NCBI GenBank assembly: GCA_963775425.1 | Contig: CAVZJB010000011.1 | Coordinates: forward strand, 416,001-480,000 | DNA: 64,000 bases | Origin: an uncultured delta proteobacterium | Lineage (GTDB): Bacteria; Myxococcota; UBA727; VGSZ01 | Direction of reading: 5' to 3' | In this document: positions 12,351 to 39,632 of the stretch, piece by piece | How the letters are laid out: each line of letters opens with the position of its first letter | Numbering within the stretch: the stretch's first letter is position 1 | Position numbers and translations under genes: made by a program | Notes under the pieces: model-generated | The model's input: the letters and a program-made list of their open reading frames with translations, nothing else | Database searches by the model: none | Told to the model about the DNA's origin: nothing

Positions 12351-13865
12351 GTGCGCCCCGTTGTCCTTCCTCTCGTCCTCACCGCGCTGCTGCCGCTCTC
12401 CGCCTGCTTCCTGTTCGACGATGTCAGCCTCGCGTGCGCCGGCGACGACAACTGCCCCGCGGGCGACACCTGCTCGTCGGGCACCTGCGTCGCCGCCGCC
12501 GGCGACGAGGGCGAGGGGGAGGGCGAAGGGGAAGGCGAAGGAGAGGGAGAGGGCGAAGGAGAGGGCGAAGGAGAGGGCGAAGGAGAGGGCGAAGGCGAGG
12601 GCGAGGGCGAGGGAGAGCTCTGCCCGGACAACACCTGCGGCGACGGCTGCCACGACGTGAGCGAGCAGTGCGACGACGGCGCGGCCAACAGCGACCTGAT
12701 CGCCAACCGCTGCCGCACCGACTGCACGCTGCCGCGCTGTGGCGACGCGGTGGTCGACGCGGGCGAGGCGTGCGACGAGGGCGCCTTCAACACCGACACC
12801 GAGCTCGGCGACGTCTGCCGCACCAACTGCGTCTTCGGCGACGCCTGGTCGAACGCCCCCACCGACGGCGCGCCCGGCGCGCGCACGGGGGCGGCGTCGT
12901 TCCTGAGCGGCAACGGCGTCGTGGTGTGGGGCGGCGACAGCGACAAGGACGGCGCGCGGCTCGACCTCGACACGCTCACGTGGCAGCCCATCGCCGACGG
13001 CCCCACCGAGATCAGCGTCGGCACCACCGCCGTCCTCGGAGACAAGCTCTTCGCGTTCCGCGGCGGCGTCCGCGGCACGGAGCCGGCCGGCGGCATCTAT
13101 GACGCGAGCACCGATACGTGGCACACGCTGCCGTCGACGGGCGCGCCGTCGGACCGCGTGCGGCCGAGCGCGGCGTTCCTCGACGCGAACACCGTCGTGG
13201 TCTTTGGCGGCAGCGCGGGCATCAGCGTGCTGATGCTCAACGACGCCTTCATCTACGACGTCGCCGGCGACCAATGGTTGCCGTTCACGCCCAACGGCAC
13301 GCCGCCGTCGCCGCGCCGCGACGCGGGCGTCGCCGTCGTCGGCGGCGACCTGTTCATCTGGGGCGGCGTCACCGACAGCGACACCTCCGCCACCACCAAC
13401 ACCGGCGCCCGCTTCGACCACACGCAGAACCGCTGGGTCGACATGACGACGACGGGCGCTCCCGCGCCGCGCACCGCGCCCACCCTGGTGCCGCTGAACG
13501 ACGGCCGCGTCGCGGTGCTCGCCGGCAGCATCGGCGACGGCTCCATCGGCGGCCTCGACGCCGCCATCTACGATCCCTCGAGCGACACGTGGTCGCCCAT
13601 CGCCGATCCCGTCCCGTGCCTTGGTTCCCGCAGCCCGGTCGCCCTCGTCGGCGACGAGCTCATCGCGCCGCTGTCGTGCAACGCGACACCGGGCGGCCGC
13701 TACTCACTGTCCGCCCAGACCTGGCGAGACACCGGGACCACCGGCGCGCCTCCCGGTCGGTTCTTCACCAACGCGGTCGTGACCCCCCGCGGCGTGTTCG
13801 TCTTCGGCGGCACCGCCCAGAACTTCTTCACCCAGACCGACGTCGGTGCGTTCTACGAGCCTTGA
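12351..13865 (+). CDS. Lipoprotein with (GE)n linker, myxobacterial Cys-rich repeats and Kelch propeller
   Basis: GTG after AGGAG; LLPLSAC lipobox; E(GE)18; CGDG..EQCDDG..N..C repeats; Kelch motifs VWGG, VFGG, IWGG with YD..TDTW. Confidence 0.8.
   Translation: MRPVVLPLVLTALLPLSACFLFDDVSLACAGDDNCPAGDTCSSGTCVAAAGDEGEGEGEGEGEGEGEGEGEGEGEGEGEGEGEGEGEGELCPDNTCGDGCHDVSEQCDDGAANSDLIANRCRTDCTLPRCGDAVVDAGEACDEGAFNTDTELGDVCRTNCVFGDAWSNAPTDGAPGARTGAASFLSGNGVVVWGGDSDKDGARLDLDTLTWQPIADGPTEISVGTTAVLGDKLFAFRGGVRGTEPAGGIYDASTDTWHTLPSTGAPSDRVRPSAAFLDANTVVVFGGSAGISVLMLNDAFIYDVAGDQWLPFTPNGTPPSPRRDAGVAVVGGDLFIWGGVTDSDTSATTNTGARFDHTQNRWVDMTTTGAPAPRTAPTLVPLNDGRVAVLAGSIGDGSIGGLDAAIYDPSSDTWSPIADPVPCLGSRSPVALVGDELIAPLSCNATPGGRYSLSAQTWRDTGTTGAPPGRFFTNAVVTPRGVFVFGGTAQNFFTQTDVGAFYEP
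12507..12617 (+). repeat. Coding (GE)n dipeptide repeat with mixed codons
   Basis: GAG GGC GAG GGG GAG GGC GAA GGG GAA GGC GAA GGA... Confidence 0.9.
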
Positions 13866-26977: not shown

Positions 26978-27829
26978 TCACTGGCAGGTGGACGACGCAC
27001 GCGCGTCTTCCATCGCGAAGCGCACCGCGAAGCCCTCCGGGGAGCGGGCGAGGAAGTAGGGGCGGCCGTTGACGAAGAGGTAGGGGGTGAACTCGACGCC
27101 GAGGCGCTTGCCCTCGGCCTGGCTCGCGTCGACCTTGTTCACCACGGCGGGGTCCTTCATGTCCTTCATGAAGCGATCGACGTCGAGGCCGAGGGCCTTG
27201 GCGTGGCCCTTCAACAGGTCGTCGGACAGGAGGTCCTGGGTGGCGAAGATGGCGTCGTGCATCTGCCAGAACTTGCCCTGGCGGCCCGCGGCCTCGGCGG
27301 CGATGGCGGCGGTCCGGGCCATGGCGTGGAACGGCAGGGGGTAGTGCTTGTACACGAGCTTCACGTCGGGGTGCTGCTTCACGAGCTCGTCGAGGAGGGG
27401 GGCGGCCGCGCGGCAGTGTTGGCACTCGAAGTCCGCGTACTCGACGACGGTGTACTTGGGGTTGCTCGATCCCTTCCAGGCGTAGCCCTTGGTCTCGATG
27501 CTCTTCTTCTTGCCGGCGAAGCCCCCCGTGAGCTCCCGGGTGACGGACTCCTGGAGCTGGTCCGGCGTGACGCCGTCTTCCAGGTTCCGGACGATCCAGC
27601 GACCGAGGAGGACGGCAGGCTTGCAGTGCGTGCCCTCCTGGAGGCACTGGCCGAAGCTCTTCGGGCAGTCGCAGGGGCAGATCTCGTCGTTGGCGACCTT
27701 GGCGAAGAAGGCCTTGCCGACGGGGTCGAGGCGGCTGGTGTCGACAGCGGGGAAAGAGGTGAGCGAAGAGACGGCCCTTTCGTCCGGGGCCGCCACGGCC
27801 AGTAGCGCGAGGATCACAAGCTTCGACAT
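26978..27829 (-). CDS. DsbA/thioredoxin-domain periplasmic protein
   Basis: EYADFECQHC, KHYPLPFH, QGKFWQMHD, GVEFTPYLFVNG; N-terminal CPCDC..C..C. Confidence 0.85.
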   Translation of the reverse strand: MSKLVILALLAVAAPDERAVSSLTSFPAVDTSRLDPVGKAFFAKVANDEICPCDCPKSFGQCLQEGTHCKPAVLLGRWIVRNLEDGVTPDQLQESVTRELTGGFAGKKKSIETKGYAWKGSSNPKYTVVEYADFECQHCRAAAPLLDELVKQHPDVKLVYKHYPLPFHAMARTAAIAAEAAGRQGKFWQMHDAIFATQDLLSDDLLKGHAKALGLDVDRFMKDMKDPAVVNKVDASQAEGKRLGVEFTPYLFVNGRPYFLARSPEGFAVRFAMEDARASSTCQ

Positions 27830-27930
27830 GTGCGGGGTCCTATCACCCGAAACGTCCGACGGCGAGGCACGTTGCCGGGTCCCTTGCGCCTCGGTGGGAG
27901 TGTTCCGTATCGTCGAAGCCGCTGCGATCC

Positions 27931-28884
27931 ATGGCGAAAAGCGAATTCGGCGATGACTATGAGAAGACCACTGTCCTTGGCGTCAAGGACATTGAGATCT
28001 TCACGCCTGGAAAATCAGGTGCGCGCTCCGCGTACCTGATCGTCATCAACGGAAAATCCGTCGGCAAGATGTTCAAGCTGTCGGCGGACACCGTCGTCAT
28101 CGGCCGCGCGCCCACCAACGAGATCCTCATCGACGACGAGGGCGTGTCCCGCAAGCACGCCTACGTCGAGCGCGCCGCCGCCGGCCTCGTGCTCGTCGAC
28201 GGCGAGATGATGGCGGGCGGGGGCATCAAGCCGTCCACCAACGGCGTCTTCGTCAACGGCGCCCGCGTGGAGCGCCACCTGCTCGCCGACGGCGACAAGG
28301 TGCAGCTCGGCTCGTCCACCATCCTCAAGTTCTCGTTCCAGGACGAGGTCGAGGAGCGGGCCCAGAAGCAGATCTACGAGATGGCCACGCGCGACGGCCT
28401 CACCGCCGCGTACAACAAGAAGTACTTCGCGGACCAGCTCAAGACCGACTTCGCGTTCTACCACCGGCACATCGAGCGCCCGCTCAGCCTCGTGCTGTTC
28501 GACATCGACTTCTTCAAGAAGCTGAACGACGGCTTCGGTCACCAGGCGGGCGACTACGTGCTGAAGAGCCTCGCCGCCATCGTCCAGAAGGCGCTGCGCA
28601 CCGAGGACATCTTCGCCCGCTACGGCGGCGAGGAGTTCGGCATCATCCTGCGCGACACCGACGGCGAGAAGGCCTACATCATCTGCGAGCGCATCCGCCG
28701 CAGCATCGAGAACTTCCAGTTCACCTACGACGGCAAGCGCCTCCCGGTCACCATCTCCATGGGCGTCGCCACCCTCGCGTCGCAGAACTACCAGAACCCC
28801 AAGGCGCTGGTGAAGGCCGCCGACGAGTACCTGTACGCGGCCAAGCACAACGGCCGAAACCGCACCGAGAGCGCCCTCATTTGA
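27931..28884 (+). CDS. FHA-domain diguanylate cyclase
   Basis: IGRA..VSRKHA..STNGVFVNG (FHA); DIDFFKKLND, RTED I-site, ARYGGEEF. Confidence 0.9.
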   Translation: MAKSEFGDDYEKTTVLGVKDIEIFTPGKSGARSAYLIVINGKSVGKMFKLSADTVVIGRAPTNEILIDDEGVSRKHAYVERAAAGLVLVDGEMMAGGGIKPSTNGVFVNGARVERHLLADGDKVQLGSSTILKFSFQDEVEERAQKQIYEMATRDGLTAAYNKKYFADQLKTDFAFYHRHIERPLSLVLFDIDFFKKLNDGFGHQAGDYVLKSLAAIVQKALRTEDIFARYGGEEFGIILRDTDGEKAYIICERIRRSIENFQFTYDGKRLPVTISMGVATLASQNYQNPKALVKAADEYLYAAKHNGRNRTESALI

Positions 28885-29538: not shown

Positions 29539-29614
29539 GAGCGGCCGCGGTCAATTGCGACCGGAGGGAGCGGCCGCGGTCAATTGCGACCGGAGGGAGC
29601 GGCCGCGTTCAATT
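29539..29614. repeat. Tandem 29-bp REP-like repeat (2 full + 1 partial copy)
   Basis: GAGCGGCCGCGGTCAATTGCGACCGGAGG at 29539-29567 and 29568-29596, partial at 29597-29614. Confidence 0.85.
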
Positions 29615-32600
29615 CGGGATGCGGTTGCCGTGGCACAGACGGCACGTCGAGGGGTTCGACATGCGGCTCTCCCGGTGCGGGAAGGTCCACTTGGACGTGT
29701 ACGTGGAGCCGGTGGTGACCACCGAGAGGCCCGTGGGCGGGTTGTGGCACTGGTAGCAGTCGACGCCGGCGAAGTGGTTGCCGCAGGCGAAGCCGCCGGG
29801 GCAGTTGTTGCTGTTGACGGTGATGGTGTCGCCGCCCTTGCGGGTCACCAGGCTCGTGATCGTGAAGGGACGGGTGTCGCCTGCGCCGCCGGACGTCGTC
29901 GTCGAGCCGTTCCACACGGTGCCCACGAGGTTGCTGCCGGCTTCGTGGCAGGCCGCGCAGTGGTTGTTCTCGACCGAGCTCGCGTGGTCGTAGCCCTTGG
30001 CCTGCTTGCCCCCCGCCGACGACGCGTGACACGCGGTGCAGGCGTTTGCGCCCGGGTCCGGGTGGGGGAGGTTCGCGACGGCCGCCTCCGTCGTCCCCGC
30101 GCTCGTCGCCGGCGGCGCCGGGACCGTGAAGCCGCCCACGGCGATGAACGCCGGGTAGCCGCCCTCGGCGCCGAGCCAGTTGGGGTTGTTGGCGCTGCCG
30201 GTGCCGGGCCACGAGTGGCAGGCGGAGCAGTCGGTGGAGCCGGACTGGTTGGTGAAGCCGCTGTGGTCGAACGAGAACGACGATCCCGGCTTCACGTTCA
30301 GGTGGCAGTCGCTGCAGCGGGCGGTGGTGCCGTTGGTCAACAGCGGGCTCTGCGCGGTGAAGCTCGTGTGGAACTTCGCCTGCGCCCACTCCTTGCCCTG
30401 GACGCCGCTCACCGTCGAGGGCCCGGACTGCGTGTGGCAGAAGTTGCAGTCGTGCGCGCTGACGTTCAGGTCGGTGTGGATGATCTGGTCCTTGGTGCCG
30501 GCGGCGATGCCCGTGGTGGAGTCGCTCGCCGCCGACGTCGTCGTCGTGGAATTCGTCAGGCCCGTGGGCAGGTTGTTGCGCGTGCCCGCGGTGGCGCCGT
30601 TGCCGTTCTGGGTGCCGTGGCAGACGTTGCACGAGGTGACGTTGGCGGTGACCGCGTGAAACGGCGTGGCCCGGTTGAAGTCGCTCCTGGTGACGTCGGC
30701 GGCGTGACACTGCGCGCAGTCCTTGCCCACCACGAAGCTCGCCCCGTGGTTCATCCATTGCGCGCCGTTGGTGGACGTGCCCCCGAGCGGCAGGGTGTAC
30801 GCCACCGTGCTCTGCGTGGCCGCCGCCGGCGACGAGCCGCTGTGGCAGTCGATGCACGCCGTGGGCTGCGGCGACGCCGACGCGTGGAAGGTCCCTCCCG
30901 ACCAGCGTGACGACGTCAAAGGCGTCTGCGTGGCGCGCCCGAGCGCCGCCGTGTGGCAGGTGCGGCAGTTCTGGAAGGGCATCTGGCCGCTTCTGTGCTT
31001 CATGGCGAACAGCGCGCCGCTCGCCTTGTCCGCGGCGGCGGCGTCGGCCATCAGCGAGTAGTGGCAGGTGGTGCAGTCGGCGGGGACCGCGGCGCCGATG
31101 TTCGCGTGGAATTCGCCGTCCGTCCACGCGCCGCCGGGATCGGTGTGGCACACCGCGCACTCGATCTGCGAGACGTTGTTGACGCTCCTGCCGCCGATGT
31201 TCACCGACGTCGTGAACGTCGCGCTGTGGTCCATGGGCTGGAGCTCACCGGCCGTGCCCTGCACGATGTTCGCCGGGCGCATCTGCGCGTGGCAGTCGAG
31301 GCACGCCGTGGGCTGCGCCAGCGGCGTCACGCCGCTCGTGGGCGTGCTCTGGAAGTTGTCGAACGACGCGTGCAGCAGGCCGTCCGCGAACGACGTCACG
31401 GTGCCGCCGGTGTTCTGGTGGCAGTGGAAGCACTTGGTGGAGTCCGGGTTGGCGGCGGGGCCGGCGTTCAAAGACGAGGGCAGCGCCGCCGACGTGTGCA
31501 GCATGGCGTTCGGCAGCGTCGCCTGCGACGACGACGTCGACGTCACGAAGTTCTTGGCCCCCGAGCGCACCAGGGTGATCTCGTTGAGCGCCACGAACTG
31601 TCCGGGTGACGACACCAGCGTGTCGCCCGGGTACGAGATGCCGCCCTGCCAGTCGCCGCCCGGCAGCGAGCCGGTCGAGGGGCTCAGGAGGTGCCGGTAC
31701 GCGCCCGAGGCCACCGTGGCCGCGTGGCAGCCGATGCAGTCGCCGGTGCCGTCGGTGGCGTGGTCGAAGCCGAGGAGCGCGGCGCTGTTGGCGACGACGC
31801 GGTCGGCGCGCTGCGCGGTGTGGCAGACGATGCACGTCGAGCTCGCCACCGTGCCTGCCGCGTGGGAGAAGTCGCCGCCCGCGAACGTCTGGTTCACGCC
31901 CCACGCCGCGCCGGCGCCGGGCCCGTTGTGGCACAGGACGCAGTCCTGTCCGTCGCCGTGGCCGAGCCCCAGGCTGTTCGTCGTGAAGTCGAACGGCGCG
32001 TCGGCGAACCCGGGATCGGTCCAACCGTTGGTGGACGTCGGGCGCTCACCGTCGTGGCAGGGCAGGCACGTCGACGGCGTGGCGTCGCCGACGTTGTGGA
32101 AGCGGCCGCCGGAGAACGAGGTGTACGAGCCGCCGCCGTGGCAGGTGATGCAGTCGGTCAGGGCCGCCGCGGTGGTGTGATCGAACGTGACACCCGCGGG
32201 CAGCGACGCCGCGCTCGCGTGCGTGAACGTCGTCGCCGGGCGCGAATTGGCGTGGCAGTCGATGCACGACCCGGGCTGCGGCAGCGAGGCAGCGTCGAGC
32301 GAGTCGTGGAACACCGTGGGCGTGTCGCCCGCCGCCCACGTCGTCGCCGGCGACTGCACCGTCGGCGGCACGTGGCAGACGCTGCACTCGACCGGGACGA
32401 GCGCCGTCGTCGTCGGCGCGTCGTTCACCCACGCGACGGCGTCGTGCTTCATCTCGCCCGAGGCGGGGTTGCGCGGCGGATCGGTGGCCGTGGGGCCGAC
32501 GAAGCCGGTGGGCATGGACGTGAAGTGGCACTCCGTGCAGCGCGTGGGCTCGGCGATGAAGAGGTTCTCGAGGGAGGAGTGGAATTCGCCGGGGTAGTAG

Positions 32601-35600
32601 TTGACGGTGTCGCTGTGGCAGTTGGTGCACGTGTTCATCACGGCCACGTCGACCTGCGCGGTCAGGTGGTCCATCGGCATCGGCATGGTCTCGGTGACCG
32701 CCTGCAGGCTCTCGATGGAGGTGACGGTGTACGTGGGGATCTGCGCGTTCACGTCGATGGAGCGCAGCGGGTCGTTGACGAGGTTGGCGGGGAGCAACCC
32801 GTCTTCGCCATGGCACAAGGTGCACGTGGCGGGGTTGTTCATGCGGCTCTCGTCGTGGTCGAAGTCCCAGGCCGCCGCGTACGCCGCGCCCGTCGTGGTG
32901 GTCGCGATGCTCCCGGCCGCGGGGGTGACGTGGCACGCGGTGCAGTCGGTGCCGTAGAAGTGGTTGACGACGTCCACCGTCAACGACTGTCCGGGGTACG
33001 CCGGCGTCGTGATGGTCATCGTCGCCACCGTGAACGGCCGCGTGTCTCCGGCGCCGGAGGCGAGGTCCGTGGCGTTGTTCCACGGGGTGCCGACCAGGTC
33101 GCTCCCCGACTCGTGGCAGCTCCCGCAGTGCGTCTGGATGAGCGACGAGGCGTGGTCGTAGGCGACGGCGTTCCTGCCGCCGGTGGCGTTCGCGCCGTGG
33201 CAGGTCTCGCACGAGGTCCCCGTGGGCACCGTCGGGTGCGGCAGGTTGGCGATGCCGGGCTCGATGGTGGTGGCGTTGTCCGCGGGCGGCTGCGGCACGA
33301 GGAAGCCGCCGACGCTGATGAGCTGCGGGAAGCCGCCCTCGGCGCCGAGCCAGTTGGGCGCCGACGGCGTGCCGGTGCCCGGCCACGAGTGGCACGAGGC
33401 GCAGTCCTGCGTGCCGGCCTGGTCGGTGAACGCGGTGTGGTCGACGACGTAGCCGGGGCCGGGCTTCACGTTGACGTGGCAGTGGCTGCAGCGCCCGCCG
33501 CTGCTGTTGAGGATGAGCGGGCTGCTCGCGGTGAAGCGATCGTGGAACGTGGCCTGCGCCCACTCCTTGCCCTGCGCGGCGCCCGACGGCGCGGGGCCCG
33601 CCTGCGTGTGGCAGAAGTTGCAGTCGTGGGCGCCGACGTTGGCGTCGCCGTGATCGATCTGATCGCGCGTGCCCGGCGCCACGCCGGTGGAGGCGTCGTC
33701 GGAGGCCGTGGACACCGCGGTGGTGTCGACGACGCCGGCGGGCATGTTGTTCCCCGCGCCGGGCGCGCTGCCGACGCCGTGACACTCCTTGCACGACGTC
33801 ACGCCGACCGACACCGACGCGTGGAACGGCGTCGACGTCGAAAACGCAGCCGGCGACGGCACCGCGTCCGCCGCATGGCAGCTCGCGCAGTCCTGCCCCG
33901 CCACGTAACGAGCCGTGTGGCTCATCCACTGCGCGCCGTTGTCCGCGGTGCCGCCCTGCGCGAGCACATAGCTCACGCCGCTCTGGGTGAGCGCGGACGG
34001 CTCGCCCGCGCCGTGGCACTCCTCGCACGTCGACGGCTGCGAGGCGGCGCCGGTGTCGAGCCCCGCGTGAAGGGCGCCCCCGGACCACCGCGCCGCCGTG
34101 GCCGGCGCCTGCGCGGCGTTGCCGAGCGCGGCGGCGTGGCAGGTCTGGCAGTTCTGGAACGGGATCTCCGCCGACGCGTGGTGCATGGCGTAGTCGGTGC
34201 CGGAGGCGACGTCGGCCTGCGCGGTGTTCGCGACGGTCGGGTAGTGGCAGAGGGTGCAGTCGGCGGGGACGGCGGCGCCGATGTTCCTGTGGAAGGCGCC
34301 GTCGGCCCACGTGTCGCCCGGGCTCGCGTGGCAGGTGCTGCAGTCGATCTGCGAGACGTTCGAGACGCTCACGCCGCCGATGTTCACGGGGCTCGTGAAC
34401 GCCACCGAGTGATCCATGGGGATGAGGTCGGAGCCGGCGTGCTCGACGATGTGATCGGGCGACCTGTGACAGTCCGCGCAGTGGCTCGTCGGCTGCGGCA
34501 GCGGCGTCACCGCGCCGCCCGGCGTGGCCGTGAACGCGTCGAGCGCCGGGTGGTACTGGCCGTTCACCAGCGACGTGACCGTGCCGTTCGTGTTGGTGTG
34601 GCAGTGGAAGCAGACGCCCTCGTCGGGGTTGGTGGGGCTGCCCGGGTCGAGCGCTGCGGGGAGCGCCGCCGACGTGTGCAGCATCTGGTTGTAGATCGTG
34701 GCCGTGATGGACGTGGTGCTCGTGACCAGGTTGTTGGGTCCCGAGCGCACGAGGCTGATCTCGCTGACCGTGAAGAACTGGTCGAGCCCGCCGATGGGCA
34801 CGTCGCCGGGGTACGTGACGCCGCCGGACCAGTCGCCGCCGGGCAATTCGCCGGTCGACGGGTCGAAGTAGTTGTCGAAGCGCGCGGTGGTGACGCTCGC
34901 CTGGTGGCAGCCAAAGCAGTCGCCCGTGCCGTCGTTTTGATGGTCGAAGCCGAGGAGGGCCGCCGCGTTGCCGACGCCGATGACGAGGTCGGGGCGCTGC
35001 GTGCTGTGGCAGGCGATGCAGGACTGGTCGACGGCGGTGCCGGGGGCGTGGGGGTAGTCGCCGCCCTGCCAGTTCTGGTCGACGCCGAAGGTGCCCGAGC
35101 CGGGGCCCGCGTGGCAGAGCACGCAGTCCTGGCCGGCGCCGTGGGTGGCGGCGGCGTTGCCGGTGAAGTCGAAGGGCCGGTCGCGGAAGCCGGTGTCGGC
35201 CCACGCCGCCGTCGACGTCGGCCGCTCGCCCTCGTGGCAGGGAAGGCACGACGACGGCACCGCGTCGCCCGCGTGGTGGAACCGGCCGTCGGCGAACGAC
35301 GTGTGTGAATCGCCGGCGTGGCACGCGGCGCAGTCGCCGCGCGCGGCGGGCGCGGCGTGATCGAAGACGACGCCTGGCGGCAACGACGCGTTCTGCGCCG
35401 TGAACGTCGTCGAGGGGCGCGAGTTGGCGTGGCAGTCGATGCAGGAGTCGGGCTGGGGGACGGCGGCGGCGTCGAGCGAATCGTGGAACACCGGCGGGCC
35501 GTTGGCGGTGGCCCACGTGGCCGCCAGCGTCTGCGACGGCGGCGTATGGCACAGGCCGCACTCGGTGGGGACGAGGCCTGACGCGGTGGGCGCGTCGGCG

Positions 35601-36487
35601 AGCCAGGCCACCGCGTCGTGCTTCATCTCACCCGAAGCCGGATCGCGCGGCGGGTCGACGGCGAGGGGCCCGACGAAGCCGGTGGGCATCGACGTGAGGT
35701 GGCACTCGGCGCACTGCGTGGGCTGCGGCTTGAACAGCGTGCCGAGCGACGAGTGGAGCCTGCCCGGGTAGTACGTGGCGGTCTCGGCGTGGCACGCGGT
35801 GCAGTCGAGCATGGTCTCGGCGTCGATCTGCGACGTCGCGTGCTGCATCGGCATCGGCAACGTCTCCACCGTGGGGGTGACGGCCGCGATGGACGTGCCG
35901 GCGTAGCGGGGCAGGAGCGCGTCGACGTCGACGTCCGCGAGCGGATCGGACGCGAGACCCGGCGGGAAGGCGCCGACCTCGGTCCAGTCGGTGGTGGAGA
36001 AGTGGCAGGCGCCGCAGTCGGCGCTGCCGCGGTCGGGGTGCGTGAAGCCCGCGATGGGCAGCGCGGCGAACGCGGCGCCCTCGTCGTGGCAGGTGGCGCA
36101 TTGGTTCTGGCCGCTCGCGTGATCGAAGATCGGCCGCTGCACGCCGCGCGCGTGGCACGCGTAGCAGTCCACGCTCTCGTACGCGTAGTCGCTGACGGTC
36201 TCGTGCAGGAGGTTCGTGGCGACGGGCTCGTGCTCGTGGCACGAGACGCAGTTGAACTCCTGGAAGGTGTCGCTGTTCGTGTGGCACTGCGCGCAGTCGA
36301 CGGCGTGCGGCCCGCTGTCGATGGGGAAGTACGACTTCGAGTGCTCGGCGATGGTGAGCCCGGCGAACACGGGTTTGCCCGGGTCGGTCGGGCAGCCCGC
36401 GGCGAGCGCGGTGATCGCGAGCGCGGCGAGCGCCGGCAGGAACCCGGCCCGCGTGATCTCCCGTTCATGGATTCCGGCCTTGCGCAT
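29609..36487 (-). CDS. Giant multiheme c-type cytochrome lipoprotein (53 CxxCH; 5 + 24 + 24 architecture)
   Basis: Signal peptide ending LAAGC; 53 CxxCH motifs counted by hand; ~1050-aa internal duplication (e.g. TSMPTGFVGP..DPPR.PASGEMKHDAVAW occurs twice). Confidence 0.9.
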   Translation of the reverse strand: MRKAGIHEREITRAGFLPALAALAITALAAGCPTDPGKPVFAGLTIAEHSKSYFPIDSGPHAVDCAQCHTNSDTFQEFNCVSCHEHEPVATNLLHETVSDYAYESVDCYACHARGVQRPIFDHASGQNQCATCHDEGAAFAALPIAGFTHPDRGSADCGACHFSTTDWTEVGAFPPGLASDPLADVDVDALLPRYAGTSIAAVTPTVETLPMPMQHATSQIDAETMLDCTACHAETATYYPGRLHSSLGTLFKPQPTQCAECHLTSMPTGFVGPLAVDPPRDPASGEMKHDAVAWLADAPTASGLVPTECGLCHTPPSQTLAATWATANGPPVFHDSLDAAAVPQPDSCIDCHANSRPSTTFTAQNASLPPGVVFDHAAPAARGDCAACHAGDSHTSFADGRFHHAGDAVPSSCLPCHEGERPTSTAAWADTGFRDRPFDFTGNAAATHGAGQDCVLCHAGPGSGTFGVDQNWQGGDYPHAPGTAVDQSCIACHSTQRPDLVIGVGNAAALLGFDHQNDGTGDCFGCHQASVTTARFDNYFDPSTGELPGGDWSGGVTYPGDVPIGGLDQFFTVSEISLVRSGPNNLVTSTTSITATIYNQMLHTSAALPAALDPGSPTNPDEGVCFHCHTNTNGTVTSLVNGQYHPALDAFTATPGGAVTPLPQPTSHCADCHRSPDHIVEHAGSDLIPMDHSVAFTSPVNIGGVSVSNVSQIDCSTCHASPGDTWADGAFHRNIGAAVPADCTLCHYPTVANTAQADVASGTDYAMHHASAEIPFQNCQTCHAAALGNAAQAPATAARWSGGALHAGLDTGAASQPSTCEECHGAGEPSALTQSGVSYVLAQGGTADNGAQWMSHTARYVAGQDCASCHAADAVPSPAAFSTSTPFHASVSVGVTSCKECHGVGSAPGAGNNMPAGVVDTTAVSTASDDASTGVAPGTRDQIDHGDANVGAHDCNFCHTQAGPAPSGAAQGKEWAQATFHDRFTASSPLILNSSGGRCSHCHVNVKPGPGYVVDHTAFTDQAGTQDCASCHSWPGTGTPSAPNWLGAEGGFPQLISVGGFLVPQPPADNATTIEPGIANLPHPTVPTGTSCETCHGANATGGRNAVAYDHASSLIQTHCGSCHESGSDLVGTPWNNATDLASGAGDTRPFTVATMTITTPAYPGQSLTVDVVNHFYGTDCTACHVTPAAGSIATTTTGAAYAAAWDFDHDESRMNNPATCTLCHGEDGLLPANLVNDPLRSIDVNAQIPTYTVTSIESLQAVTETMPMPMDHLTAQVDVAVMNTCTNCHSDTVNYYPGEFHSSLENLFIAEPTRCTECHFTSMPTGFVGPTATDPPRNPASGEMKHDAVAWVNDAPTTTALVPVECSVCHVPPTVQSPATTWAAGDTPTVFHDSLDAASLPQPGSCIDCHANSRPATTFTHASAASLPAGVTFDHTTAAALTDCITCHGGGSYTSFSGGRFHNVGDATPSTCLPCHDGERPTSTNGWTDPGFADAPFDFTTNSLGLGHGDGQDCVLCHNGPGAGAAWGVNQTFAGGDFSHAAGTVASSTCIVCHTAQRADRVVANSAALLGFDHATDGTGDCIGCHAATVASGAYRHLLSPSTGSLPGGDWQGGISYPGDTLVSSPGQFVALNEITLVRSGAKNFVTSTSSSQATLPNAMLHTSAALPSSLNAGPAANPDSTKCFHCHQNTGGTVTSFADGLLHASFDNFQSTPTSGVTPLAQPTACLDCHAQMRPANIVQGTAGELQPMDHSATFTTSVNIGGRSVNNVSQIECAVCHTDPGGAWTDGEFHANIGAAVPADCTTCHYSLMADAAAADKASGALFAMKHRSGQMPFQNCRTCHTAALGRATQTPLTSSRWSGGTFHASASPQPTACIDCHSGSSPAAATQSTVAYTLPLGGTSTNGAQWMNHGASFVVGKDCAQCHAADVTRSDFNRATPFHAVTANVTSCNVCHGTQNGNGATAGTRNNLPTGLTNSTTTTSAASDSTTGIAAGTKDQIIHTDLNVSAHDCNFCHTQSGPSTVSGVQGKEWAQAKFHTSFTAQSPLLTNGTTARCSDCHLNVKPGSSFSFDHSGFTNQSGSTDCSACHSWPGTGSANNPNWLGAEGGYPAFIAVGGFTVPAPPATSAGTTEAAVANLPHPDPGANACTACHASSAGGKQAKGYDHASSVENNHCAACHEAGSNLVGTVWNGSTTTSGGAGDTRPFTITSLVTRKGGDTITVNSNNCPGGFACGNHFAGVDCYQCHNPPTGLSVVTTGSTYTSKWTFPHRESRMSNPSTCRLCHGNRIPN

Positions 36488-36612
36488 CGTCCGCTCACCG
36501 TATGCGAGGACCGCGCCGCGTCACCATCATTCGCTGCGCACGAGACACAATTCGACGTCGTGACGTGCGCCGGGTGGGCGCGCCCGCGTGCGCGCACACC
36601 CCCCGCACACCC

Positions 36613-37474
36613 TCACTCGGCGACCTTCTTCTCGCCTGCCGCGATGCGCACCGGCAAGGTGTTCTCCGGACGCGGCAGGGGACAGGTGGCGAACGGCGTG
36701 AACGCGCAGGGCGGGTTGTAGGCGCGGTTGAAGTCGAGCGTGACCTTCCCGTTGCGGGGTGCGTCGGCGGAGAGGAAGCGCCCGGCACCGTGGGTCTCCG
36801 CCGGCGCCGTGGCGTCCTTGAACACGAAGAACAGCGCGCCGTCCTCGTCGACGGGCTCGAGCGTGACGGCGTGGCCGTCCACGGAGAAGTGCGCGCGCCC
36901 CGTGGCGAAGGCCTCCTGCGCCGGGCCGTGCGCGCTCGGGATCATGAGGCGCAACTTGTCGGCGCGTCGCCTCGATGACCCAGCGCTCGTCGACGGGGAA
37001 CGCGTCGATGCCGGGGAACTTCGTGCGGCGCTCGCTCCGTGCGTCCCACTCGCGGATCGCGAGCTGCCCGGTGCGCTCGATGAGCGCGACGGTCTTGTCG
37101 CCGAGGTGGAGCGTGTCCGGATGGCCGCTCGCGTCGCTGTGGAGGACCACCTCGCCGACGGGCTTGCCGTCTTCGGTGTAGCCGTCGCTCTCGCGCGCCG
37201 CGAGCGTCACCTGCGGCGCGCCGTCGACGGTGGCGAGCGTGAGCACGCCGGGCAGGCCGGGGACGGCGTTGTCGCCCGGGCGCAGCCATTGCAGCGCCAC
37301 CAGCGCGAGCCATCCGTCCGGCTCCTTCAACCGCTCGATGCGCTCGTCGTGCCACTTCTGCCACGCGGCGACGAACGGCGCGGCCGCGCGCGGCGCCGCG
37401 GGAGGGGCGTCCTTGTGGCACGCGCCCGAGAGCGCGACGGCGGTGACGACGGCGAGGGGGACGACGGCGCGCAC
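36613..37474 (-). pseudogene. DUF1684-family lipoprotein, frameshifted near 36955-36970
   Basis: N-half (ALSGAC; ERLKEPDGWLALVALQWL; FPVDERWVIEA) and C-half (FFVFKDAT..ETHGAGRFL..LDFNRAYNPPCAFTPFATCPLP..N.L.V.I.AGEK) are in different frames. Confidence 0.75.
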
Positions 37475-37487
37475 GACGGCAGCCCGC

Positions 37488-38288
37488 TCACGCGGAGCGG
37501 CGTCCGCCCTGGCGGCGCTCGACGTCGACCTTGGACTGGTGCCCGAGGAACTCGGTCTCGAGCTCCTGCGTGGACTGCCGCGTGCGCTCGGCGAGGTCGC
37601 CGATCTCGCGCGCGACGACGGCGAAGCCGCGACCGTGCTCGCCGGCCTGCGCGGACAGGATGGACGCGTTGAGCGCGAGCAGGTGGATGCGCTTGGCGAT
37701 GCTGCGGATGATCTTCAAGAAGTCGCTGACCGCGCGCTGGCGCTCGCTCTGGATCTGATCGGCGAGCGCGATGATCTCGGCCTCGATGGACGACAGGCCG
37801 AGGAGCGCCGCGTTGCCCTCGCTCGCGGGGACGCCGCACAGGATGACGGCGACCGGGTCGCCGCCGACGAGGACGGGCTTGGCGTTCACGAGGAACCTGC
37901 GCTCACCGAGGTCCGCGCTGCCGCCGAACGTCTCGCCGCGCATGAGGCAGACCGTGGCCACCTCGCGCGGGAGCGGCACCGAGGCCAGGTCGCCGGCGAA
38001 GGAGGCGCTGGCGGCGACCGCCTTCTCCTGGAGGAAGAGCAGGGCCATCAGCCCCGCGCTGTCCGCGGAGAGGTTCAACAGCTCGCGGCCGATGGGCCCC
38101 GACAGCGAGCGCCCTCCCACGGCGAGGCCTCGGTCGTCATGGACGAGGCTGCCCTCGCGTCGAAGGAGCGCGAGGAAGAGGTCGCAGGTGCGGTCGGCGC
38201 GCTCGACGACCTGATCGCGCGCGAAGGCCTCGAGGCGGGCGGTGAGATGCTCATGGAGCTGAACGTCGGGCACGGCGGAAGAATACAC
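37488..38288 (-). CDS. Short soluble methyl-accepting chemotaxis-like protein
   Basis: [36 protein letters not shown] hairpin tip; no TM helices; Cache-like N-terminal part. Confidence 0.75.
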
Positions 38289-38348: not shown

Positions 38349-39632
38349 ATGATCCTCGATGTGCGGTCCCTCGCCCTCGCCCTGATCCTGTCCGCGCTCC
38401 TCGGGGGCTGCCAGCTCTTCTTCGGCGTGACCCCGTGTCGCCACAACGAGCCGTGCCCGGGCGGCGAGGTCTGCGACACCGGCGCGGGCATCTGTCGCTC
38501 CATCAGCGCGCTCCCGCCCGACGCCGGCGATCCTGGCGAAGGCGAAGGCGACCCGGGCGAAGGCGAAGGGGAGGGCGAAGGAGAAGGGGAAGGCGAAGGC
38601 GAAGGCGAAGGGGAGGGAGAGGGCGAAGGAGAAGGCGAAGGCGAAGGCGAGGGAGACATCACGCCGGTCATCCCCGCGGTCTGCGGCAACAACGTCGTCG
38701 AGCCCCCCGAGGAGTGCGACGACGGCAACCGCACGAGCGGCGACGGCTGCTCCTCCACCTGCCACACCGACACCAGCGTCACCGAGCAGGAGCTCAACGA
38801 CGAGCCGCAGGGACAGCAGGTCACCGTGGCGAGGACGCAGTTCGACATGCTCGGGCAGGTGGAGATGTTCTTCGACTCCAACGCCAACCAGAACGTGTCC
38901 GAGTACGACGGCTTCTGGCTCACGTTGAACAACCCGGCCGTGGTGCGCCTCGAGACCTTCGACCAAAACAACGCCGACGACTGCACCGGCGCCGCCGCCC
39001 ACTGCCTCGCCCTGTACGACAGCTCCGTCGACGGCGCCAACAGCCAGGCGCAGTTCGACGCGGCGTGGCTCCGGGGCGCGGCGCAAAACGGCGTCGGCAA
39101 CTGCGCGGGGATGACGGAGAACCTCGCCGCCGGCGACTACTGGGTCGAGATCACCGAGTGCGACTTCGACCAGCCGATCCCGAGCTACCGGGAACAGATC
39201 GCCGCGCTCGCCGATCGCGGGCCGGAGCACGAGCCCGACAACGACCGCGCCCACGCCGACCGCTCCGCCGCCGACGGCCGCGACGTGTCGATGTCGGGCA
39301 GCATCGGCAGCGCCGACGATGTCGACGTGTACGCCGTCGACGTGCCCCCCGGCCTCGGCCTGCGCGCCGAGGTGGTGCCGGTGACCTCGAAGAGCGAGTG
39401 CGACGCGTTCAACGCGCGCCTCGCCGTCCTGGACGCGAGCGGCACCGAGGTGGCGAGCCACGGCTCGGCGCTGTACGCGTGCGCCTCCGGCGACGGCACC
39501 GGCGCGGCGCCGCGCGACCCCTCGCTGCACAACGGGACACAGACGGCGCAGACGTTCTACGTCGCGGTCGCCAAAGGCTCGTCGGGCTTCACCGGCGCGC
39601 TGCCGTACCGCATCGCGTTCACGGTTCGCTGA
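38349..39632 (+). CDS. Lipoprotein with (GE)n linker, myxobacterial Cys-rich repeat and two PPC-like beta-sandwich domains
   Basis: LLGGC lipobox; long GE run; CGNNVVEPPEECDDGNRTSGDGCSSTC; EQELND, EHEPDND...GSIGSADDVDVYAV. Confidence 0.8.
   Translation: MILDVRSLALALILSALLGGCQLFFGVTPCRHNEPCPGGEVCDTGAGICRSISALPPDAGDPGEGEGDPGEGEGEGEGEGEGEGEGEGEGEGEGEGEGEGEGDITPVIPAVCGNNVVEPPEECDDGNRTSGDGCSSTCHTDTSVTEQELNDEPQGQQVTVARTQFDMLGQVEMFFDSNANQNVSEYDGFWLTLNNPAVVRLETFDQNNADDCTGAAAHCLALYDSSVDGANSQAQFDAAWLRGAAQNGVGNCAGMTENLAAGDYWVEITECDFDQPIPSYREQIAALADRGPEHEPDNDRAHADRSAADGRDVSMSGSIGSADDVDVYAVDVPPGLGLRAEVVPVTSKSECDAFNARLAVLDASGTEVASHGSALYACASGDGTGAAPRDPSLHNGTQTAQTFYVAVAKGSSGFTGALPYRIAFTVR

Follow-up and report, generated by a model that had tools for sequence, protein, structure and literature searches.

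The stretch of DNA analysed here, which we call the window, comprises 64,000 nucleotides from an uncultured delta proteobacterium of the phylum Myxococcota (assembly GCA_963775425.1, contig CAVZJB010000011.1, positions 416,001 to 480,000). Its minus strand carries an intact open reading frame (ORF) at 29609..36487 that starts with ATG and encodes a multiheme c-type cytochrome of 2292 amino acids. A first-pass annotation, made from the letters of the window alone, had described this protein as a lipoprotein with 53 CxxCH heme-binding motifs, arranged as a 5-heme head followed by two collinear copies of 24 hemes each, and had proposed that it serves as a surface electron wire whose length is set by duplication of the 24-heme module. 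The hand count was confirmed by a regular-expression search, which returned exactly 53 CxxCH motifs in the 2292-residue protein and no CX3-4CH or CxxCK motif; 1000 shuffles of the same residues contained 0.28 CxxCH motifs on average and 3 at most. The G+C content at third codon positions of the ORF is 0.97, like that of real genes nearby. The protein contains 109 cysteines (106 of them within motifs), 123 histidines and 27 methionines, and alanine, threonine, glycine, serine and proline make up 50% of its residues, in line with the Thr/Ser/Ala/Gly/Pro-rich chain noted earlier. Its N-terminus, MRKAGIHEREITRAGFLPALAALAITALAAGC, runs from charged residues through a hydrophobic stretch to the lipobox LAAGC with Cys32, so that the annotated lipobox could be retained. 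Five motifs, at residues 65, 80, 108, 130 and 158, lie ahead of the repeat, which consists of two tandem copies (residues 178-1227 and 1236-2287) with 24 CxxCH motifs each and 56.7% identity over 1069 alignment columns. This self-alignment reproduced the annotated head and the borders of both copies. Heme-motif spacings are irregular across the whole protein, ranging from 15 to 102 residues. The gene is organised as follows:

29609..36487, minus strand: whole gene, including the stop codon (29609-29611), for the multiheme c-type lipoprotein with its 53 CxxCH motifs
36488..36612, minus strand: 125-nt spacer 5' of the gene; GGTGAG stands a few bases ahead of the ATG
36392..36487, minus strand: signal peptide and lipobox LAAGC, residues 1-32 (the putatively lipidated Cys32 at nt 36392-36394)
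35957..36391, minus strand: 5-heme head, residues 33-177, with CxxCH at residues 65, 80, 108, 130 and 158
32792..35956, minus strand: 24-heme unit 1, residues 178-1232, delimited by self-alignment and a hidden Markov model (HMM) of the unit
Blocks of unit 1: residues 178-561 (9 hemes), 562-1050 (11 hemes) and 1051-1232 (4 hemes)
29612..32782, minus strand: 24-heme unit 2, residues 1236-2292, delimited by self-alignment and the unit HMM
Blocks of unit 2: residues 1236-1621, 1622-2108 and 2109-2292

A scan upstream of the gene found no sigma-70-like promoter site, and terminator-like sites were at chance level. An assembly artefact was ruled out: identity between the two units is no more than 57%, and the same order of exactly 53 motifs recurs in 14 homologues from other assemblies.

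Heme ligands, homology and length series of the family

Ligands were counted on an alignment of 75 full-length 24-heme units of the family. The 48 cysteines and 24 histidines of the motifs are conserved in these units, together with 25 further histidine columns, one of which lies inside a CxxCH, leaving 24 spare histidines for 24 hemes; 22 of these 24 columns are at least 99% conserved. No conserved cysteine was found outside the motifs of the aligned units. A conserved M-x-H holds six of the 24 spare histidines of each unit, and the first-pass remark that nearly every CxxCH has a spare histidine nearby, often in this form, can thus be put into numbers. Examples of M-x-H sites in protein P0001 are residues 214-216, 288-290, 602-604, 691-693, 768-770 and 855-857; their methionines are 87-100% conserved and may have a role such as heme packing or alternative ligation. 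In the head, the family consensus contains five motifs and, by hand count, six conserved non-motif histidines. This pattern fits a chain in which all hemes would be bis-histidine (bis-His) coordinated, low-spin and of the electron-transfer type, with no candidate active-site heme. Judged by its conserved ligands, the protein is an electron carrier and not an enzyme.

Pfam searches of the 2292-residue protein returned heme-domain families only. PF22113 (MtrC/MtrF domain II/IV) matched 11 stretches with an E-value of 3.4e-63 and 212.8 bits against a cut-off of 30, and gave nine matches within the ORF when the genome was searched; PF14522 (c7) matched 6 stretches, and class III cytochrome c was also matched. 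The only NCBIfam match, to the DmsE decaheme family, was below threshold, and phmmer found no match among solved structures. A profile of the family gave local matches in the PDB to MtrF (3pmq, 2.4e-11), to the dodecaheme GSU1996 (3ov0, 6.6e-10) and further to MtrC (6qyc, 6r2q_C), UndA (3ucp) and HmcA. The matches to MtrF (3pmq residues 191-337, E 2.4e-11) and MtrC fall in the pentaheme regions of these proteins and cover profile positions 53-187, which probably represent the 5-heme head.

Of 5.8 billion proteins searched, 67 with lengths of 1260-4011 residues proved to be relatives; a further search, which counts as weak evidence, found none of 4012-5000 residues. Where the relatives bear names, nearly all are called 'hypothetical protein' and a few are annotated in general terms as cytochrome c. 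The metagenome bins from which they originate carry labels such as Myxococcaceae, Archangiaceae, Anaeromyxobacteraceae and Myxococcales. Among 1.84 billion clusters at 50% identity, 268 matched at E<=1e-3 and 118 at E<=1e-30, many of them fragments. By a simple heuristic, 57 of 68 family proteins have a lipobox-like N-terminus (two of these calls are false), and several of the misses are truncated N-termini. The family is small, unnamed and uncharacterised, and was found in one bacterial phylum. Mean pairwise identity among 24 one-unit proteins, with Cys and His excluded, is 25% in the head, 44% in blocks 1 and 2 and 28% in block 3.

The members differ in length in a stepwise manner. Homologues of about 1260-1340 residues carry 26-29 hemes (eight with 29, six with 28 and twenty with 26), 14 homologues of about 2230-2310 residues carry exactly 53, and the largest counts are 77 (3346 residues) and 78 (3124 residues), with intermediate values of 38, 49, 57, 69 and 73. 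As detected with the unit HMM, whole units (model positions 1-1073) occur once, twice or three times, which gives 29, 53 or 77 hemes, and two sub-blocks are duplicated alone, namely positions 2-388 (9 hemes) and positions 2-883 (20 hemes). Repeats of units and blocks are always head to tail and in register. The 29/38/49/53/69/77-78 series arises by whole blocks of 9, 20 or 24 hemes. The proposal that length is set by duplication was therefore upheld, in relatives with one, two and three whole units plus extra 9- or 20-heme blocks. In-register insertion of blocks at several break points would be expected of an extended modular rod.

The history of the duplications was followed in trees of individual units. 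In a FastTree tree of 75 units, both units of the window protein and those of P0003, P0004, P0006 and P0009 form one clade with a support of 100. A separate clade, with a support of 98, unites units 1 and 2 of twelve to thirteen further two-unit proteins, most of them with 53 hemes; P0022, P0023, P0030 and the first unit of P0007 belong to it as well. For the 77-heme protein, the same tree shows unit 3 as the product of a later duplication of unit 1. An IQ-TREE tree of 34 units agrees (supports of 99 and 88), and an approximately unbiased (AU) test rejected the topology with a single ancestral duplication (log-likelihood difference 179.7, p 1.5e-18), the groups used in this test having been named after the first tree had been viewed. 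The branching of the units indicates that the 53-heme form originated twice; early gene conversion between units within each lineage would mimic two origins. Under two origins and gene conversion alike, the 5+24+24 form is not a one-off.

Structure modelling of unit 1 with AlphaFold2 (37-row alignment) gave a poor model, with a predicted local distance difference test (pLDDT) score of 63 and a predicted template modelling (pTM) score of 0.43. Foldseek against the PDB with this model returned 7 rows, all with E of 7 or more, and VIA-align wide gave a best Z of 2.5 and no fold match. The best-predicted parts include two long beta-hairpins (unit residues 9-33 and 388-425), whose positions coincide with the starts of blocks 1 and 2; this low-confidence model shows beta-hairpins and no barrel domain. 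Because the model is too poor, surface exposure and linear shape are inferred.

Barrel-cytochrome clusters in related genomes

Of eight related loci in reference genomes, four place the family member close to homologues of a flavoprotein of about 750 residues with 4Fe-4S dicluster and Pyr_redox_3 domains; the homologues of this Fe-S flavoprotein in the genome of the window begin with a hydrophobic helix. Three of these four flavoprotein loci (L010, L011 and L013) also contain a 20-heme cytochrome, a 10-heme cytochrome or both. The genes of L013 follow each other on one strand in the order flavoprotein, 20-heme cytochrome, 10-heme cytochrome, 555-residue protein and 29-heme family member; L010 repeats this order, and its gene for the 555-residue protein is interrupted by a frame break. 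The latter protein has 58 relatives, no Pfam domain and no informative name, and its C-terminus reads ...GG-x-F. Its structure model (31-row alignment, pLDDT 80) comprises a small N-terminal domain and 22 beta-strands. Foldseek searches with this model returned 255 matches at E<=0.001, and the top matches listed are outer-membrane beta-barrels (MOMP, the FimD/PapC ushers, Occ porins and Cir), except for the engineered 9j9p. The 555-residue protein is predicted from this model to be a 22-strand outer-membrane beta-barrel of an unnamed family.

Conserved clusters were observed twice in the genome of the window (C11:166924-179987 and C4:372511-382267) and in L010, L011, L013 and L016. They contain a membrane-anchored Fe-S flavoprotein of about 750-960 residues, a 30-heme cytochrome (or a 20-heme and a 10-heme cytochrome), the predicted 22-strand barrel and a lipoprotein cytochrome. 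This layout of one or more periplasmic multiheme cytochromes, a porin-like barrel and a lipoprotein cytochrome is that of the Mtr and porin-cytochrome (Pcc) conduits. From their gene content, the clusters may encode a complete route for electron export, with a flavoprotein as an unusual entry module.

Co-occurrence of cytochrome and barrel was assessed in a sample of 301 genomes of the phylum, which are related and not independent, so that we give counts only. The cytochrome family was found in 26 of these genomes, belonging to 17 of 137 genera, and in 2 of the 38 genomes of the class to which the window organism belongs. The barrel was found in at least 70 of the 301 (one of them, G195, unpublished): in all 26 holders of the cytochrome family, compared to 44 of the 275 other genomes. 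The gap between the two genes is below 1 kb in six genomes (G214, G235, G247, G252, G255 and G260) and 3.8-10.2 kb in seven (G137, with two loci, G176, G196, G208, G227, G262 and G291). Both genes lie far apart on one contig in two genomes, at 266 kb in the genome of the window and 684 kb in G197, and on different contigs in the remaining 11 of the 26 holders.

Whole-unit duplication was seen in five sampled genomes (G000, G031, G145, G228 and G273). That the two-unit genes are the unlinked ones is suggestive only, three of the five lying on short contigs. In G273, a 311-kb contig carries the flavoprotein, the 20-heme cytochrome and the barrel, the last not followed by any family member, and the 53-heme gene is on a contig of 552 kb. 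In G137, an expanded family member of 2483 residues lies 4.6 kb from a barrel.

Genomic setting of the 53-heme gene

The genome that contains the window measures 8.26 Mb in 18 contigs and is 94.6% complete. The first-pass annotation had called for a search of the genome for cytochrome c maturation genes, and this search revealed a System II pair encoded by adjacent genes, ResB (C3:493343-494623, 202.9 bits) and CcsA/ResC (C3:495005-496114, 84 bits). No match to PF11854 (MtrB/PioB) was obtained in this 94.6%-complete genome. Eighteen frames of the genome contain at least four CxxCH motifs, and the window gene is the sole family member among them. For type II secretion, a GspL-type match exceeded the family cut-off, and a GspK match, whose control was unspecific, fell below its own.

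Pfam scans of the window found no MtrB-type porin, quinol dehydrogenase or maturation gene, as had been noted for the flanks of the cytochrome gene. The accompanying statement that this is not a standard porin-cytochrome operon holds in the window and does not extend to the family, in which a barrel lies within about 10 kb in 13 of the 26 holder genomes. The upstream neighbours are a DUF1684 lipoprotein gene in two frames (36613-37474) and then an ORF with an MCP domain (37488-38288); downstream lie an FHA-GGDEF gene and a DsbA-like gene, and farther neighbours in the window encode Ser/Thr kinases, ribosomal proteins, FtsK, ETF, GroEL and others.

The DUF1684 gene (36613-37474, minus strand) has its N-terminal part in ORF 36527-37474 and its C-terminal part in ORF 36613-36954 (E 1.6e-33), a split that points to a frameshift or sequencing error. 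ORF 37488-38288 (minus strand, 266 residues) contains only a partial MCP signalling domain (E 8e-19), without a recognisable sensor or transmembrane part, and could be a truncated or soluble chemoreceptor-like protein. The DsbA-like thioredoxin-fold gene (26981-27982, minus strand) is on the same strand as the cytochrome gene and 1.6 kb downstream of it. It is not kept beside family members in the eight related loci, so that a role in the maturation of the 106 heme-binding cysteines is unsupported.

The genome also displays a very large expansion of Gly-Glu repeats, with 278 tracts of at least six and up to 49 dipeptides, about one per 30 kb. Two of them lie in the window, at 12507-12614 and 38556-38651. 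Those tracts that were seen in translated ORFs stand just after a lipoprotein-type N-terminus and a Cys-rich stretch, and one window ORF matches myxo_disulf_rpt/DUF4215. A Gly-Glu-repeat lipoprotein gene near the cytochrome loci was considered as a linked gene and rejected: with 278 such tracts in the genome, its proximity was put down to chance. The order to which the window organism belongs groups 8-Mb genomes with a family of 21 genomes of 0.3-3.4 Mb, an unusually wide span.

Proposed function and comparison with known cytochromes

We consider it somewhat probable that the protein is a non-catalytic lipoprotein whose family provides the outward-facing cytochrome of a porin-cytochrome conduit, the window protein being a doubled-length version encoded apart. 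The one-unit (29-heme) members of the family typically come straight after the gene of the predicted 22-strand barrel. The protein would be exported by Sec, receive its hemes from ResB/CcsA and be lipidated at Cys32. It would then be moved to the outer membrane and exposed on its outer face, by analogy with MtrC and OmcA (PMC7096707). The chain would be made of a 5-heme head like the pentaheme domain of MtrC/MtrF and two 24-heme extension units, each corresponding to about five pentaheme-like modules. Electrons could pass from the barrel-threaded periplasmic cytochrome along the 53 bis-His hemes to distant acceptors, or in reverse; the distance bridged between outer membrane and external acceptor or donor would amount to some tens of nanometres. 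Solved cytochromes extend by ~0.7-1 nm per heme, and a linear chain at this rise would reach 35-50 nm as a single polypeptide. In this proposal we infer the outer-surface location, the linear shape, the docking to a conduit encoded elsewhere in the genome and the direction of electron flow. A more tentative possibility is that the family represents covalent, length-graded wires with a variable 5-heme membrane end and a rod lengthened in quanta of 9, 20 or 24 hemes, of which the doubled versions, encoded outside the conduit operon, may serve several conduits in trans. If the 53-heme length was truly reached twice independently, this would point to selection on reach.

Several observations weigh against assigning the window protein to a conduit. 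No electron-export gene is linked to the cytochrome gene in the window, and the nearest barrel homologue is 266 kb from it. Both barrel genes of the genome (C11:178287-179909 and C4:378048-379769) are already flanked by lipoprotein cytochromes of their own, a 29-heme c7-type polymer (C11:175753-178287) and an 8-heme ORF (C4:379682-382267). The available flanks of the five two-unit genes contain no barrel gene either, and the idea of the head as a conserved docking surface is unsupported, the head being the least conserved region. The 29-heme lipoprotein at C11:175753-178287 was itself examined as a paralogue of the window protein and rejected, with 25% local identity and regular c7 spacing. 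The missing linkage to any pore gene in the genome of the window also favours the main rival explanation, in which the protein would be a periplasm-facing lipoprotein, held in the inner leaflet of the outer membrane or in the inner membrane, and would act as a periplasm-spanning wire or an electron store with no exposure at the surface. A lipobox alone is no proof of surface exposure, 53 low-spin hemes would store 53 electrons per molecule, and storage roles have been proposed for very large cytochromes (PMC11495043). However, in relatives the family member follows the barrel, in clusters that already have 30 periplasmic hemes, and this is the position of outer-membrane cytochromes in the known porin-cytochrome clusters (PMC4245776). 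The head, moreover, resembles the pentaheme domain of the surface cytochromes MtrC and MtrF. On this evidence we regard the periplasmic placement as rather unlikely.

Two other explanations concern the direction of electron flow and the possibility of catalysis. With the same placement, electrons could flow inward, taken up for example from prey, partner cells, reduced humics or Fe(II) minerals. A chain of bis-His hemes can work in either direction, nothing in the sequence sets the direction, and homologous porin-cytochrome systems work both ways (MtoAB, PioAB). There is however no positive evidence for uptake, and the first gene in the clusters of relatives encodes an Fe-S flavoprotein, membrane-anchored and of the pyridine-nucleotide-disulfide oxidoreductase type, which suits export from cytoplasmic donors even if it could also work in reverse; we judge the inward reading improbable. 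Catalysis, for instance by a multiheme reductase like NrfA, HAO or the octaheme enzymes, finds some support in the family profile, which matches NrfA and octaheme nitrite reductases weakly and locally (E 1e-5 to 1e-3), but these matches span only 60-200 residues and reflect heme-packing motifs. The protein lacks CxxCK or any other variant motif, and block-wise duplication of 9 to 24 hemes is ill-suited to an active-site fold. Since each heme of the unit has its conserved spare histidine, 24 for 24, and no candidate active-site heme was found, a catalytic role was rejected and appears highly improbable.

The outward-facing cytochrome that we favour shares with MtrC, MtrF, OmcA and UndA of Shewanella a predicted N-terminal lipid anchor, homology to the pentaheme domains II/IV and bis-His hemes, and in relatives also a gene position beside a barrel and a periplasmic cytochrome of decaheme size. 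It differs from them by its 53 hemes instead of 10-11, by an identity too low for a phmmer match and by the lack of any match to the two split beta-barrel domains. According to PMC7096707, MtrC, OmcA and MtrF hold their ten or eleven hemes in a staggered cross, flanked by two split beta-barrel domains (I and III); their N-terminal cysteine is acylated, and a type II system secretes them to the surface. The window protein is not a member of this group because it does not follow the four-domain, ten-heme plan. The conduits differ as well: the barrel of the relatives belongs to another family, with 22 predicted strands and no MtrB_PioB match, and the window gene is unlinked. Clustering of the cytochrome gene with a porin-like barrel and a periplasmic multiheme cytochrome is thus seen in relatives and not in the genome of the window. 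The likeness of the relatives' clusters to Geobacter-type Pcc clusters (OmcB) is one of gene arrangement, in that both combine a periplasmic multiheme cytochrome, a porin-like barrel and a lipoprotein cytochrome; those of the relatives add the Fer4 and Pyr_redox_3 flavoprotein and the 20-heme cytochrome. In Anaeromyxobacter, the Pcc clusters described in PMC4245776 contain a porin and a 12-heme periplasmic cytochrome without an outer-membrane cytochrome gene.

Long single chains of concatenated small heme modules are also found in GSU1996-type c7 polymers and in the predicted 27-heme wires of Desulfuromonadia, a likeness reflected in the PF14522 and 3ov0 matches. The single-chain cytochromes of the 27-heme cluster of Desulfuromonadia are proposed, in PMC11492766, to be wires that arose by duplication. 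Unlike GSU1996, the window protein has no regular triheme period and its repeat unit comprises 24 hemes; for lack of this triheme period it was not assigned to the GSU1996-type c7 polymers. With the OmcS, OmcE and OmcZ filaments it would share long-range transport along stacked bis-His hemes outside the cell. These filaments have no lipid anchor and become long through the polymerisation of subunits with 4 to 8 hemes, whereas length would here come from one covalent chain, and the lipobox argues against a polymer type. OmcS, OmcE and OmcZ are absent from the best 60 PDB profile matches.

The range of 6-10 hemes given in the first-pass annotation for known multiheme cytochromes is not an upper limit. 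Published surveys report 112 CxxCH motifs in a Paludibaculum genome bin (PMC11495043), 45- and 49-heme proteins with heme-number variation among homologues (PMC7399161), and, in Desulfuromonadia, proteins with 69 and 53 motifs and a predicted 27-heme single-chain wire (PMC11492766). The giants of such surveys (Paludibaculum; Burkholderiales, Anaerolineales) resemble the present family in their tens of hemes, predicted secretion and variable heme number; going by the descriptions available, they come from other taxa and apparently belong to other families. The large size of the window protein is not a record, in view of the 112 motifs published, and the idea of a single-chain cytochrome wire is already in print. 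No description of the family, of its 5+24n plan or of the barrel cluster was found in the accessible text of the literature searched, which did not extend to supplementary tables, where members may be listed.

The main value of the family lies in a natural length series, in which variants of one protein carry 29, 53 or 77 hemes. Most work on long-range biological electron transport has so far dealt with polymerised filaments and with surface cytochromes of 10 hemes, and this series would allow conductance, redox cooperativity and reach to be related to chain length within one covalent molecule. A porin-cytochrome system is also indicated for the phylum, whose electron-transfer routes are little characterised; the system would comprise a new family of barrels, periplasmic cytochromes with 10 and 20 hemes and an Fe-S flavoprotein of the membrane.

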